DNA of 64,000 nucleotides from the IMG/VR virus record IMGVR_UViG_3300046804_003518, positions 124,324 to 188,323 of that record; one strand, given 5' to 3'. Below the pieces are notes generated by a model that saw nothing but the letters and a program-made list of their open reading frames with translations, ran no database searches and was not told the DNA's origin. A program made the translations under genes and the position numbers. This document shows, one piece after another, positions 23,830 through 28,367 of this stretch (position 1 is the first letter of the stretch; every line of letters begins with the position of its first letter). This DNA comes from a virus.

Positions 23830-24636
23830 ATGGGCTCAGTAATTGTTAAAGGTCATAAAATAAAAGGCGAAAAAGTTGTTGGTGGGAATAGTATGGAATT
23901 AGATAGAACCAATCATAAGGCAATGGGTGACACTGGTAAGATTCGTCACGCATATATCATCTATATTAATAGGCCTGAATCTATTCAATATGCAAACGAA
24001 TGTGCTAGGTCTTGCGAACAATATGGTTTACCATATACGCTTTGGGAAGGCGTTAATATGGAAACAACAAGAGGTGAGGATCTAGAGAAGGTTACTGGAT
24101 TCATCTGGACATCAAGAACCCCTGAAATGGGATGTACGGCAAGTCATCTTAAACTTTGGAGAACACTTGCTGAACAGCCACATGCTTGCTGTGTGTTTGA
24201 ACATGATGCAATACTAAAAGATAAAATCTACGATACAGAGATACCAGATAATAAACTTGTTATGCTTGGGTATAGAGTATTAAAAGCTGAAGATTATGAA
24301 AGACCAGATGACCCAGTTACATTTATGGATATCAATAAGTTTGAAGGGACTCATGCCTATGCAATAACACCTGCTATGGCAAGGCATATGATCGAAAGAA
24401 TGGAAGGGTTTTATACAAAAGAATTTGGTGGTGTTAATACAACAATTGATGGTATTCTTTCCATCCATGATAATTTTGGAATAGCAAGATGTGTCATGGA
24501 CCCACCACCTGTGGTGTGTGTAGTTGGTGATAGGATATCAACTATTCAAGGTAGGCCAGCTGCCTACAATGCCAGCGTGTCCCCTGGTTTTATGAAAGGA
24601 TTGAAAGCTGAACCTTTGAGGATCACTGCTAGCTGA
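23830..24636 (+). CDS. Glycosyltransferase family 25-like protein
   Basis: AYIIYINR, MGCTASHLKLW, VFEHDA, GTHAYAITP. Confidence 0.75.
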   Translation: MGSVIVKGHKIKGEKVVGGNSMELDRTNHKAMGDTGKIRHAYIIYINRPESIQYANECARSCEQYGLPYTLWEGVNMETTRGEDLEKVTGFIWTSRTPEMGCTASHLKLWRTLAEQPHACCVFEHDAILKDKIYDTEIPDNKLVMLGYRVLKAEDYERPDDPVTFMDINKFEGTHAYAITPAMARHMIERMEGFYTKEFGGVNTTIDGILSIHDNFGIARCVMDPPPVVCVVGDRISTIQGRPAAYNASVSPGFMKGLKAEPLRITAS

Positions 24637-24662: not shown

Positions 24663-25058
24663 ATGTGGCTATACAATGATAAAGAACTTACGGATGAAGA
24701 CACCAAAGGGTACTATGGTTTCATCTATGAGATTGAGTGCTTAGTTAATGGTAAGCTCTATCTAGGCCGTAAGTATTTTACTAAGGCTGGTACCAAACAA
24801 GTAAAGGGTAAAAAAAGAAAGACACGTAAGGAGTCTGATTGGAAAGACTATTACGGGTCCTCTCCTCGTTTATTAGAGGATGTAGAGAAGTTAGGTAGAG
24901 ATAAGTTTGTAAGAAGAATTGTTCGTCTCTGTAAGACAAGAGGTGAAACAAACTATTGGGAGGCTAAGCTTCAGTTTGCCAATGAAGTGTTGGAGTCAGA
25001 CAAATATTATAACGACAACATCCTGGTGAAATTCACAAGGAGGAATATTGGATTATGA
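24663..25058 (+). CDS. Conserved T4-like GIY-YIG-type nuclease
   Basis: GFIYEI..LVNGKLYLGRKYF, DWKDYYGSS, YYNDNI. Confidence 0.75.
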   Translation: MWLYNDKELTDEDTKGYYGFIYEIECLVNGKLYLGRKYFTKAGTKQVKGKKRKTRKESDWKDYYGSSPRLLEDVEKLGRDKFVRRIVRLCKTRGETNYWEAKLQFANEVLESDKYYNDNILVKFTRRNIGL

Positions 25059-25498
25059 AAGTAGGATTCACTTGTTCGACGTTTGATTTGTTTCATGCTG
25101 GTCATGTGATCATGTTGAAGGAAGCAAAGACGCAATGTGACTATTTAATTGTTGGTCTACAGACAGATCCAACAATTGATAGAAAGGAAAAGAATAAACC
25201 AGTACAAAGTATTTTTGAACGATATGTCCAGTTACAGGCTTGCAAGTATGTGGATGAAATTGTTGTGTATGCTACTGAGAAGGACTTAGTGGATATTCTC
25301 CTAGCCTATCCAATTAATGTTCGTATTCTAGGTAATGAATATGAGCATAGAGATTTTACAGGTCGTGACCAATGTATTGAAAGGGGCATTAAGTTCTACT
25401 TTAACAAAAGAGAACATACATTTTCTACTACCGAACTTCGCCAAAGGGTTGTGGAAGCAGAAGCAGAAAAGACGGTAAAACAGTACGGGTTGCCGTAA
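25055..25498 (+). CDS. Glycerol-3-phosphate cytidylyltransferase-like (TagD family)
   Basis: GFTCSTFDLFHAGH, LIVGLQTDP, RTFSTT-like REHTFSTTELR. Confidence 0.85.
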   Translation: MKVGFTCSTFDLFHAGHVIMLKEAKTQCDYLIVGLQTDPTIDRKEKNKPVQSIFERYVQLQACKYVDEIVVYATEKDLVDILLAYPINVRILGNEYEHRDFTGRDQCIERGIKFYFNKREHTFSTTELRQRVVEAEAEKTVKQYGLP

Positions 25499-25508
25499 CC
25501 TGTTGATT
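25496..25508. promoter_or_regulatory. IHF-consensus site upstream of early promoter
   Basis: TAACCTGTTGATT = reverse complement of WATCAANNNNTTR. Confidence 0.55.
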
Positions 25509-25526: not shown

Positions 25527-25555
25527 TTGACAAGTTGACCGGATGTGCGTATAAT
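25527..25555 (+). promoter_or_regulatory. Sigma70 early promoter (leaderless transcript predicted)
   Basis: TTGACA-17-TATAAT; ATG 7 nt downstream of the -10. Confidence 0.9.
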
Positions 25556-25562
25556 GGACCTC

Positions 25563-25943
25563 ATGTTAGTATACACTCGTGCTCGCTTCAAGCCTAAAAA
25601 GAAGCGCAAAGTTCGTGGCGTCATTGCAACTAAGTATGATGCCAAGAAATATGCTGATACGAAATCAACATACATTCCTACCTATACCGGGCGCTCCCTT
25701 CGTCCTGGTAGCGAGACCGCAATGCAGGCTCAATCACTACAAACTAACGCATGCTTTACAACTAAGCATTCTGTAATGGATGCTGCCATGTTAGCAAGAG
25801 AGCCAGAGCATGTTCGTGAGGCAATCATTGCTAAGAGTAAGCGGATTGCTATTGCCTACAATAAGGGTGCCTACCAATATGTTACAGACGACACTGATCC
25901 TAAAACTATTGGCAGTGGTGAGAGGTTGAGACGCGGTGGCTAA
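25563..25943 (+). CDS. Basic hypothetical early protein
   Basis: Start set at ATG 25563 because the track start lies inside the promoter; IAIAYNKGAYQY motif. Confidence 0.65.
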   Translation: MLVYTRARFKPKKKRKVRGVIATKYDAKKYADTKSTYIPTYTGRSLRPGSETAMQAQSLQTNACFTTKHSVMDAAMLAREPEHVREAIIAKSKRIAIAYNKGAYQYVTDDTDPKTIGSGERLRRGG

Positions 25944-26781
25944 TGCATTAGTTGTTTTTACACCTAGAAGCGGAAGCACCATTGTTGGCGACCTTCTTGC
26001 CCATAAGTACGATGCTGTAAATCTGGATGAGGCACTAGGTGGTCAGATTAGAGGACCACTAATTAAAAGAATTCCTCCAGATGTAAAACATTGTCTTGAC
26101 CAGTTCAATGTCCTCAAACGAGGCTCAAAGGTTCTTGAAATTGGTCCTGATAGTGCAAAGATTGCATGGGGTGAAGCAGTACAATTTTATGACGATGGTC
26201 TAGCATGCTTTGATCAAATAGCAGCAAAGCATTCGATTGTGGTTAAATGTTATCCTACTATCGGCATACCTGGTGTAAAAATTATCAACTGGGCAATCAA
26301 AAATAACTTTGAGTTGTATTTCACATATAGAAGAAATTTTGAGGAACAACTCTATAGCTACACCTTAGCAGAATGTAGAGAGAAGTTTTATAATAATATT
26401 GCTAAAGCTGGCAAACTAAAAATGCCACCTTATGCCGGCTTCTTGAATACAAAGGGTAGCACTAGAGTGGAGTTTCCACCTGTAGAGTATCCTATTCAAT
26501 TGGCAATGCCTCTAATTATCAGGTTGTGTGGAATAAGAAGTCTATGGTCTTCGTATTATAGAACATACGGTAGATATGGTAAGGTGTTGTGTTACGAGGA
26601 CACCATACAAAAAAATGATTTCAGTGCTCTTGGTATTACTGCCGAGCAATTTAAAGAATATTCCGATAAAGATTCATCTTTAAGACCATCCAATGAGTAT
26701 GTATTGGGAAAGCAAATTAAAAATTGGGAACAAATTGTAAACATAGCCCGCAACTATCATATCGAGCAAGACGATGAATAA
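25936..26781 (+). CDS. Sulfotransferase-like protein (Stf0/P-loop type)
   Basis: 5'-PSB-like VVFTPRSGSTIV, LDE, 3'-PB-like YRRNFEEQLYS, LCYED. Confidence 0.7.
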   Translation: MANALVVFTPRSGSTIVGDLLAHKYDAVNLDEALGGQIRGPLIKRIPPDVKHCLDQFNVLKRGSKVLEIGPDSAKIAWGEAVQFYDDGLACFDQIAAKHSIVVKCYPTIGIPGVKIINWAIKNNFELYFTYRRNFEEQLYSYTLAECREKFYNNIAKAGKLKMPPYAGFLNTKGSTRVEFPPVEYPIQLAMPLIIRLCGIRSLWSSYYRTYGRYGKVLCYEDTIQKNDFSALGITAEQFKEYSDKDSSLRPSNEYVLGKQIKNWEQIVNIARNYHIEQDDE

Positions 26782-27595
26782 CCTTATTCTTTTTACCAAT
26801 AGATCAGGTAGTACCGTTCTATGTGATATGATAACATACGCAAATGAAACAATGAATCTTGGTGAGGCTACCCACTCAACCATTCGTAAATACAATTACA
26901 ATAAACCAGAATATAGGCAAACAGATCTTTATAAAGCCCTTACAGATGATAATCTTACATTCAAGTATCATAGTTTAGAAACTAGAGGATCTGATCATGT
27001 TGGCTTTGTCAAAGCTAAGTCAAAAAGACTTGAACTAATTAAACAAACTTCTATACCATGGACTGCTAAAGAGAACACTGAAAAACAAACAATTGATTTT
27101 GATTTTGTGGATTACTGCATTAATAATAAAAATATTAATGTCTACATGACCCACAGAGAAAATATTGTCGATCAGTTTATATCAACTATCAACGCAAGAT
27201 ATAGAACAGAGATTGCAAAGTCAGGTACTTTCATTTATACGAATCAGCAGACCCAGCGTCCATATGAAACAATGGAAGTAAAATTTAGCTGGTTATATCT
27301 CTATCTCAATGTGTTTATTGACCAGCTGTTGATGTGGAGATTTTTATACGATAAGTATAAACCACATATCAAACTCGTATCATACGAGAAAGAAATCAAA
27401 CCAATGAAGTTTGAAAATATTGGAATTAGTTCAAGTATTGTTGACAAATACAAAAAGGAAACGCAGTACCTAGTGCCTACACCATACAACACATCAAAGG
27501 TAATAGTTACTGATGACCACCCAAAACCAATTGTTGGTGCTTGGGAGCAATCATTATATTACGTTGAAAAATTTAAACATCTAGTGGAGATTTAA
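26774..27595 (+). CDS. Sulfotransferase-like protein (paralogue)
   Basis: LILFTNRSGSTVL, NLGE, HRENIVDQFIS, VSYE. Confidence 0.7.
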   Translation: MNNLILFTNRSGSTVLCDMITYANETMNLGEATHSTIRKYNYNKPEYRQTDLYKALTDDNLTFKYHSLETRGSDHVGFVKAKSKRLELIKQTSIPWTAKENTEKQTIDFDFVDYCINNKNINVYMTHRENIVDQFISTINARYRTEIAKSGTFIYTNQQTQRPYETMEVKFSWLYLYLNVFIDQLLMWRFLYDKYKPHIKLVSYEKEIKPMKFENIGISSSIVDKYKKETQYLVPTPYNTSKVIVTDDHPKPIVGAWEQSLYYVEKFKHLVEI

Positions 27596-27596
27596 T

Positions 27597-28367
27597 ATGG
27601 CATGTACAATATTAGTAATGGGCTTACCAGGCTCTGGTAAAACCACATTTGCAGAAAAGCTGGCAGCGCTACTCGGCGATAATGTTGATTGGTATAATGC
27701 TGACAAAGTAAGACAGCTTCATAACGATTGGGACTTCTCGCCAGAAGGTAGAATGCGTCAAGCAAAAAGAATGAAGGATCTTGCTACAGCATCTAATAAA
27801 CAAGGTCGTTATGCTATTTGTGATTTTGTATGTCCAACATATGAAACCCAGTCATTGTTTGCCAGCGATATTATTATCTGGATGGATACAATCAAAGAAG
27901 GTAGATTTGAAGATACTAATAAGATCTTCCAAAGACCACAAGAGTTCATGTTCTGGATCGATAGCTGGGACTATGAAGATGAGCTTCTTGATATTGCCTA
28001 TATGATTGTAAGTGAGCATTTTGATTGGACAAAGCCAACTGTTCAGATGATGGGCCGCTATCAGCCATTCCATGATGGTCATAAGGCTTTGTTTGAAGAG
28101 GCTCTAAAGAAGACTGGTCAGGTTGCTATCTTTATCAGGAAGATGCCTGAGGACGAAAAAAATCCATTTGGTCATAGAGAAACAGAAACTTATATCTTAA
28201 AGAAGTTGTCAAACTATCTTGGTAAGTTTCAAATTGTTTGGGTACCTAACATTGTTGACATTTCCTATGGACGTGATGTAGGATATACTATTAGTAAGAT
28301 TGAATTACCCGAAGACATTCAGGCCATCTCAGCAACAAAGATCAGGAAAGAGATGGGAATTGGTTAA
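27597..28367 (+). CDS. cysC: Adenylylsulfate (APS) kinase fused to an HxGH nucleotidyltransferase domain
   Basis: ILVMGLPGSGKT, NADKVR, DFSPEGRMRQ, DFVCP, EGRFEDTN; C-terminal MGRYQPFHDGH...ISATKIR. Confidence 0.8.
   Translation: MACTILVMGLPGSGKTTFAEKLAALLGDNVDWYNADKVRQLHNDWDFSPEGRMRQAKRMKDLATASNKQGRYAICDFVCPTYETQSLFASDIIIWMDTIKEGRFEDTNKIFQRPQEFMFWIDSWDYEDELLDIAYMIVSEHFDWTKPTVQMMGRYQPFHDGHKALFEEALKKTGQVAIFIRKMPEDEKNPFGHRETETYILKKLSNYLGKFQIVWVPNIVDISYGRDVGYTISKIELPEDIQAISATKIRKEMGIG

Follow-up and report, generated by a model that had tools for sequence, protein, structure and literature searches.

A putative sulfation operon was examined in a 64,000-nucleotide stretch of viral DNA, hereafter the window, which comprises positions 124,324 to 188,323 of IMG/VR record IMGVR_UViG_3300046804_003518. 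This record, a single viral contig of 188,323 bp of which the window forms the final 64 kb, is rated complete and displays T4-like phage gene content (nrdAB, a segE homing endonuclease, and clamp and clamp-loader genes). The operon encodes a small basic protein, two candidate sulfotransferases (ST1 and ST2), and a 256-residue protein (27597–28367) in which an adenosine 5′-phosphosulfate (APS) kinase-like domain is joined to a nucleotidyltransferase (NTase) domain of the HxGH superfamily (Table 1). An earlier note, made from the sequence alone, had described tandem paralogues followed by such a fusion at positions 25936–28367. Three open reading frames (ORFs) do occupy this interval, and the first two are paralogues (24% identity, BLASTP E = 5e-12). 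The first gene overlaps ST1 by 8 nt, ST1 overlaps ST2 by 8 nt, and a single nucleotide separates ST2 from the fusion. Genomic contexts for comparison were drawn from related viral loci (12 syntenic relatives), SAR11 and SAR86 genomes, and other IMG/VR stretches.

Table 1. Features of the putative sulfation operon and its upstream neighbors (window coordinates)
Feature	Position	Strand	Remarks
GT25	23830–24636		E = 2e-12
SegE-type GIY-YIG homing endonuclease	24663–25058		Between GT25 and cytidylyltransferase
TagD/RfaE-II-like cytidylyltransferase	25055–25498		E = 3e-16
Terminator-like hairpin	25485–25503	+	8-pair stem then T-run, just 3′ of the cytidylyltransferase gene
Sigma-70-type promoter	25527–25555	+	TTGACA-17-TATAAT, 12/12 consensus match
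First operon gene	25563–25943	+	Basic protein of ~126 aa; PHROG 4593 ("unknown function"), E = 1.6e-6
ST1	25936–26781	+	Putative divergent Stf0/Sulfotransfer_3-like sulfotransferase, 281 aa
ST2	26774–27595	+	ST1 paralogue, 273 aa
Fusion, N-terminal domain	27597–28031	+	APS-kinase-like, residues 1–145, truncated lid
Fusion, C-terminal domain	28032–28367	+	Minimal HxGH nucleotidyltransferase, residues 146–256; candidate sulfate adenylyltransferase

The upstream hairpin and the perfect promoter mark out a transcription unit consisting of the small protein, ST1, ST2, and the fusion, which is probably expressed early from this host-type promoter. Twelve related viral contigs keep the promoter, in the form TTGACn-17-TATAGT or TATAAT. 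An ATG located 7 nt past the −10 element (window 25527–25565) is conserved in the same contigs, and this short spacing suggests a leaderless mRNA for the first gene. The first gene lies upstream of ST1 in 12/12 relatives at 75–84% identity; its tblastn search against phages returned no match, as did a megablast of the region against phages.

The RSGST and R..S motifs, previously singled out as being of the PAPS-binding type (PAPS, 3′-phosphoadenosine 5′-phosphosulfate), proved to be invariant. Among 17 ST1 homologues, the TPRSGST loop, E32, and R132-Q138-S141 do not vary, and coalignment of the ST1 and ST2 families leaves T9, R11-S-G-S-T15, E32, R39, K104, R132, Q138, and S141 unchanged. This set is predicted to represent a PAPS 5′-phosphosulfate loop lacking the Walker lysine, a candidate catalytic Glu, and an R...S motif for the 3′-phosphate. 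An AlphaFold2 model of ST1 (predicted local distance difference test, pLDDT, 89) was submitted to exhaustive structural comparison (VIA), in which Stf0 of M. smegmatis (1tex) ranked first (Z 10.4), and alignments with many sulfotransferases extended across all 281 residues. The likeness to Stf0 (PF09037) and Sulfotransfer_3 (PF13469) comprises the PRSGST-type loop, an invariant Glu ~20 residues past it, the downstream R...S motif, and probably the fold; the difference is that ST1 and ST2 fall below every Pfam threshold.

More remote relatives bridge this distance. A profile search of 1.84 billion protein representatives retrieved 52 relatives, a small and apparently viral family. Among 38 distant relatives, PF13469 is matched by 10 and PF09037 by 7, and no other family recurs, which supports homology of ST1 and ST2 to sulfotransferases through intermediates. 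In a protein-language-model atlas (Atlas), all named neighbors are sulfotransferase clusters, mostly viral. The invariant motif, the Stf0-like predicted fold, the distant relatives, and the language-model neighbors together support placement of ST1 and ST2 in the sulfotransferase superfamily.

An alternative is that ST1 and ST2 are P-loop kinases or MiaA-like transferases that adjoin the fusion by chance. Consistent with this possibility, a Foldseek search of the ST1 model was split between kinases and sulfotransferases, with no match having an E value below 1e-3, and VIA placed MiaA and P-loop kinases within 1–2 Z units of Stf0 (Z 8.5–10.4). Sequence searches were similarly unhelpful: ST1 and ST2 had no match in Pfam (E 0.1), PHROGs, or NCBIfam, phmmer against the PDB gave nothing meaningful for either, and tblastn of ST1 against phages gave no match. 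However, kinases align over ~150 residues (Z 8.5–9.7) and sulfotransferases over 281, the TPRSGST loop lacks the Walker-A lysine while the downstream R..Q..S is invariant, and both the recurrent Sulfotransfer_3 and Stf0 matches and every named Atlas neighbor point to sulfotransferases. We regard a kinase or MiaA-like identity as highly improbable.

ST1 and ST2 also diverge rapidly. Among the 12 syntenic relatives, identity is 38–51% for ST1 and 51–70% for ST2 compared with 69–97% for the fusion and 89–96% for nrdB and the cytidylyltransferase, which indicates that the transferases evolve much faster than their surroundings. A third paralogue resides beyond the window at genome position 95369–96148 (+). 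Its 259-residue product carries an IYTPRTGST motif (E = 4e-40 to the family profile), and the gene sits between a 320-aa glycosyltransferase-like ORF and the sliding-clamp/clamp-loader genes.

The N-terminal half of the fusion matches the Pfam APS_kinase model (PF01583) across residues 2–84 (E = 3e-9; 37.5 bits versus a cutoff of 21.1), covering model positions 2–88 of 152 only, while PHROG 10255 ("kinase") spans the entire protein. APS kinases were matched by phmmer against the PDB and accounted for almost all of the top 30 Foldseek hits of the fusion model (pLDDT 92). When the kinase domain was compared by VIA, APS kinases scored Z 18.5, 17.8, 16.8, and 16.2, followed by gluconate kinase at 14.6; the best superposition has a root-mean-square deviation of 2.2 Å over 139 residues at 26% identity. 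The P-loop GLPGSGKTT and the acceptor motifs NADKVR (D36-x2-R39) and DFSPEGR (F47-S-P-E-G-R52) align with their counterparts in 2yvu and PAPSS1, which include the Asp, Arg, and Phe-x4-Arg that bind APS in solved APS kinases, and the P-loop and the D-x2-R/F-S-P-E-G-R motifs are invariant in 35 fusion homologues. The domain therefore resembles CysC (PF01583; PDB 2yvu, 4rfv, and 1m7g) in its P-loop, D-x2-R, F-S-x-E-x-R, and overall fold. It departs from CysC in its deleted lid, in an Asn that replaces the first Asp of DGD, and in an FVCP sequence at the canonical FISP motif, which contains a Ser. PAPS reductase was not found in the phage genome, suggesting that PAPS would be made for sulfation and not for sulfur assimilation.

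The C-terminal half matches the Pfam CTP_transf_like model (PF01467) across residues 152–189 (25.4 versus a cutoff of 21), in keeping with the CysC–HxGH NTase fusion that the earlier note had described. Most residues of the motifs GRYQPFHDGH (153–162) and SATKIR (245–250) are invariant or nearly so in the 35 homologues, including H159-D-G-H162, although HxxH is common to the whole superfamily. An NTase profile searched against the PDB retrieved archaeal and NadM-type nicotinamide mononucleotide (NMN) adenylyltransferases (NMNATs; E = 1e-8), with the aligned part confined to the ATP-binding N-terminal half, its first 64–70 positions (profile positions 11–81). Structure prediction, which had been suggested as a check on this domain, likewise led to HxGH transferases: VIA aligned the NTase half of the whole-protein model with phosphopantetheine adenylyltransferase (PPAT), NMNAT, and NadM at Z 10.2–10.7 over ~110 residues. 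Archaeal and NadM NMNATs (PDB 1f9a, 2qjt, and 2qjo; Z ~10.5, 23–25% identity) share GRxQPxHxGH, NPF, and SxTxIR with the NTase. The difference is that the segment past the third strand is much shorter in the NTase. The part that binds the acceptor in NMNATs is largely gone and is replaced by invariant V-R181-D, N189-P-F, P217-N, and Y224-G-R-D-V-G-Y, so that an Arg-bearing VRD/YGRDVGY motif pair stands in its place. NCBIfam NMNAT models score the NTase at ≤33 bits against cutoffs of 127–409 (32.9 against 397 for one).

The hallmarks of the ATP sulfurylase Sat are the QxRNP and GRDHAG sulfate-binding motifs and a PUA-like N-terminal domain. QxRNP and the PUA-like domain are absent from the fusion, and the invariant YGRDVGY resembles GRDHAG in sequence. 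The Sat model PF01747 found no match in the NTase at E 0.1, and no Sat chain appeared in the PDB profile search at E 10. Judged from its sequence, the NTase is a shortened relative of the NMNATs and falls outside the Sat family. The kinship to ATP sulfurylase proposed in the earlier note thus holds for the HxGH superfamily fold but not at the level of the Sat family.

The closest architectural parallels are the PAPS synthases (PAPSS1/2, 1x6v; Aquifex Sat-APS kinase, 2gks), which likewise combine an APS-kinase fold and an HxGH adenylyltransferase in one chain. The comparison with eukaryotic enzymes made in the earlier note extends to domain order, as the metazoan PAPS synthase also places the kinase first. 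VIA aligned 244 model residues with 1x6v (Z 16.4), with each domain on its counterpart but with a different mutual orientation. In contrast to known bifunctional PAPS synthases of ~620 aa, the fusion has 256 aa, its second domain of 110 aa is of NMNAT-like descent and carries neither a PUA-like domain nor PF01747, and the lid helix of the kinase is gone. If it makes PAPS, the fusion would be a PAPS synthase of novel build, pairing a lid-less APS kinase with an NMNAT-derived mini-adenylyltransferase.

The NMNAT-type motifs and nearest solved relatives of the NTase would also suit a scheme in which the kinase half alone serves sulfation, turning APS made by the host (via CysDN, Sat, or AprBA) into PAPS. 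In that case the NTase would be unrelated or regulatory, adenylylating NMN or another small phosphate ester or controlling the kinase. Against this idea, alignment with NMNATs is limited to the ATP-binding half, the acceptor half is much reduced, and the NCBIfam NMNAT score lies far under its cutoff. Further evidence on both sides comes from the distribution and neighborhoods of the family.

The fusion is widespread, with at least 7,961 protein clusters matching it over the full length at ~50% identity and at least 574 IMG/VR stretches encoding it. Cultured-phage records containing the fusion include the Xylella Sano/Salvo group and Stenotrophomonas DLP6, among others, where it is labeled "kinase" or "adenylylsulfate kinase". 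Phages of the Sano group, as seen in Xylella phage Sano (L001, 2211–2888 and 4024–4704), have a MazG-like pyrophosphatase and an annotated cysteine dioxygenase within a few genes of the fusion. On SAR11 and SAR86 chromosomes, each half has its own gene: a kinase gene (~136 aa) comes first and overlaps an NTase gene (~124–131 aa) by a few bases. Fused forms occur in phages and in a SAR11 glycan-biosynthesis island. A literature search found no published description of the kinase–NTase fusion family.

In SAR11, the NTase is tied to APS reductase. Among 71 SAR11-order genomes, the NTase and AprA occur together in 56 and are both missing from the other 15, an exact co-occurrence. The stand-alone NTase precedes an AprM/QmoC-like gene, aprB, and aprA at three loci (L082, L083, and L085). 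This is the position that sat usually occupies before aprM-aprB-aprA in such clusters. The arrangement therefore resembles the sat-aprMBA clusters of sulfite oxidation and sulfate reduction, the difference being that the SAR11 gene product is a 126-aa HxGH protein and not Sat. At other loci (L073–L076) and in at least 13 sampled SAR11 genomes, the pair is instead arranged tail-to-tail with aprA. A conserved 116-aa ORF without a family match always follows aprA in SAR11 (L082:6394–6744, L073:4416–4766, and relatives) and in the tail-to-tail arrangement sits between aprA and the NTase. The exact tracking of AprA and the adjacency to aprMBA argue against an NTase that is unrelated to sulfate activation.

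Known sulfurylases are scarce in the same samples. Sat (PF01747) was found in 3/71 SAR11-order and 1/81 SAR86-order genomes, and CysD in 2/81 SAR86-order genomes. Published accounts report that Ca. P. ubique contains AprBA and lacks cysDNCHIJ and sat (PMC5069961), that ATP sulfurylase is absent from most SAR11 (PMC10356861), and that sulfate pathways are "incomplete" across Pelagibacteraceae (PMC12636525). One SAR11 genome (G001) encodes, besides a kinase/NTase pair, a canonical APS kinase (contig 2, L183:156–1250 (−); E = 4e-35) with an unexplained C-terminal extension of ~200 aa.

In SAR86, the association is with sulfotransferases. The NTase was detected in 36 and Sulfotransfer_3 in 42 of 81 sampled SAR86-order genomes; 34 have both, 2 the NTase alone, 8 the transferase alone, and 37 neither (Fisher p = 1e-12, a value that ignores kinship). 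At least 14 SAR86 genomes contain a sulfotransferase gene ~550 nt upstream of the pair on the same strand, and six fetched loci display the operon order sulfotransferase-kinase-NTase. In the complete SAR86 genome G002, which encodes two strong sulfotransferases and the pair, Sat, a CysD/CysH-type protein, and AprA were not found. The gene directly upstream of the kinase in three further SAR86 loci (L023, L025, and L026; cluster 30) has no Pfam match, so this arrangement differs from the Sulfotransfer_3 operon. SAR86 operons (L096:993–4421 and matching L095 and L097–L100) also include a conserved 183-aa protein upstream of the sulfotransferase, and L096 and the matching loci have a D-2-hydroxyacid dehydrogenase gene downstream of the NTase. 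Both CysD-positive genomes are among the eight sulfotransferase-positive, NTase-negative exceptions. One of them (G067) retains an NTase remnant with two TAA stops (C1:33747–33914) and a broken Sulfotransfer_3 gene (C1:93035–93668), a pattern suggestive of one route of sulfate activation decaying in a genome that possesses the other.

Sulfotransferases also adjoin the family in SAR11: one locus (L045) contains the kinase and NTase followed by Sulfotransfer_1, and another (L078) a kinase followed by Sulfotransfer_3. The latter, a kinase-only locus beside a sulfotransferase, agrees with the scheme in which the kinase half alone serves sulfation, whereas no other source of APS was apparent in SAR86 genomes that combine sulfotransferases and the pair. 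Weighing this evidence, we consider it unlikely that the NTase has no part in sulfate activation. A protein consisting only of a pyruvate-kinase barrel is encoded directly upstream of the kinase or fusion at two SAR11 loci (L078:5004–5975 and L081:912–1892), and the genes downstream at L081 include one for an APH-like kinase and one resembling a glycerophosphotransferase gene.

Viral neighborhoods extend the link. Of 80 additional viral loci, between 16 and 26 encode sulfotransferase-like ORFs of the PRSGST type no more than 6 kb away; several of these ORFs lie immediately upstream of the fusion, and two of the six commonest neighbor families are sulfotransferases. Ten such ORFs were searched against Pfam, and 9/10 matched sulfotransferase models, 8 above the curated cutoff. 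Glycan genes, namely those for an FkbM methyltransferase and sugar epimerases, adjoin the fusion in other loci. The gene-neighborhood survey proposed in the earlier note has therefore connected the kinase and NTase with sulfotransferases and apr genes in SAR86, SAR11, and viral loci.

These partners also bear on the possibility that the module produces a donor other than PAPS, with ST1 and ST2 transferring a group other than sulfate. Precedent comes from Campylobacter Cj1415, an APS-kinase homologue that 3′-phosphorylates cytidine diphosphoramidate. The noncanonical lid, the Cys in place of the FISP Ser, and the divergence of ST1 and ST2 beyond the reach of Pfam would accommodate such chemistry. 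Nevertheless, Pfam confirms the partner enzymes as sulfotransferases in SAR86, SAR11, and other viral contigs, APS reductase is linked to the NTase, and no glutamine-kinase/amidohydrolase-type partner was present among ~90 annotated neighbors, many neighbors having no family match. A different donor is accordingly very unlikely.

Several observations weigh against assigning PAPS synthesis and sulfation to the module. The kinase is atypical, with a gap of ~20–27 residues at the lid relative to canonical CysC and an invariant Cys79 (35 homologues) at the FISP position, and its substrate could therefore differ. For the NTase, no likeness to Sat was detected beyond the HxGH superfamily, its nearest relatives being NMN adenylyltransferases. 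For the transferases, a direct Pfam match is missing, and a comparison of the ST1 family with SAR86 Sulfotransfer_3 proteins by hhalign was negative (probability 13%). The genomic associations have exceptions as well. Both the NTase and CysD are missing from six SAR86 genomes that have sulfotransferases, kinase-only or NTase-only loci occur in SAR11, and a close IMG/VR relative (L010:6833–8364) retains ST1 and ST2, with ST2 directly followed by ahpC and the fusion absent at this site. Finally, the co-occurrence counts ignore shared ancestry and may reflect few evolutionary events, as the genome samples carry no taxonomy and independent gains and losses are uncounted in the tables. This last problem applies only in part to the two arrangements beside apr and to the operons seen in several lineages.

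On balance, a sulfation operon whose kinase domain supplies PAPS appears quite probable. With somewhat less assurance, we lean toward the 110-residue HxGH domain being a third, hitherto unrecognized class of ATP sulfurylase, after Sat and CysDN. The complete mechanism, a self-contained sulfation module with the fusion as a miniature PAPS synthase, is favored to a similar, modest degree. The earlier note had advanced the idea of a minimal phage PAPS synthase, and comparative genomics now lends it good contextual support, given the links of the NTase with APS metabolism and with sulfotransferases in genomes where Sat and CysD were not found.

In this mechanism, the conserved early-type promoter would drive the four genes for the small basic protein, ST1, ST2, and the fusion. 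The HxGH domain would adenylylate sulfate (ATP + sulfate → APS + pyrophosphate), and the lid-less APS-kinase domain would then phosphorylate the 3′-OH of APS to yield PAPS, a step that would pull the unfavorable formation of APS. ST1, ST2, and the third paralogue would use PAPS to sulfate targets that may differ between related phages. The most plausible targets are glycans on the virion or in the host envelope, and such variable surfaces would fit both the speed at which ST1 and ST2 diverge and the presence of glycan genes beside the fusion in other loci. A host unable to activate sulfate would explain why a phage carries the whole pathway.

Other assignments were considered and set aside. 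A CoA-synthase-like reading (PPAT plus dephospho-CoA kinase) was prompted by enoyl-CoA hydratase and CoA-binding neighbors in SAR11 and was rejected because of the AprA and sulfotransferase associations. These associations, along with the missing acceptor half, also led to the rejection of NAD or NADP synthesis. For DNA as the sulfation target, only the location of the third paralogue near replication genes speaks in favor.

Upstream of the operon, the GT25 and TagD-like genes reported in the earlier note are both present, but they lie outside the sulfation transcription unit, cut off by the hairpin and promoter, with segE also intervening. They are dispensable in relatives: GT25 is absent from two (L003 and L004) that both retain the sulfation genes, indicating local turnover of gene content. 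The sulfation genes are flanked by an oxidative-stress set encoding superoxide dismutase, AhpC, and AhpD.

If the proposed activities hold, the 256-aa phage protein would be the smallest PAPS synthase and could prove handy for PAPS regeneration in enzymatic sulfation. The assignment would also provide a function for at least ~8,000 protein clusters now labeled "kinase", "cytidyltransferase", or "adenylylsulfate kinase". The stand-alone bacterial NTase would be the "missing" sulfurylase for AprBA-based sulfite oxidation in SAR11 and for PAPS supply in SAR86, closing a gap in papers from 2016–2025 that describe SAR11 with AprBA and without sat or cysDN, and doing so in a form testable with one small protein. 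Phages would carry the module because their streamlined hosts cannot activate sulfate by known routes. Many marine and freshwater phages would thus bring their own sulfate-activation and sulfation chemistry, which would probably remodel cell or virion surfaces, a type of modification that has hardly been studied.

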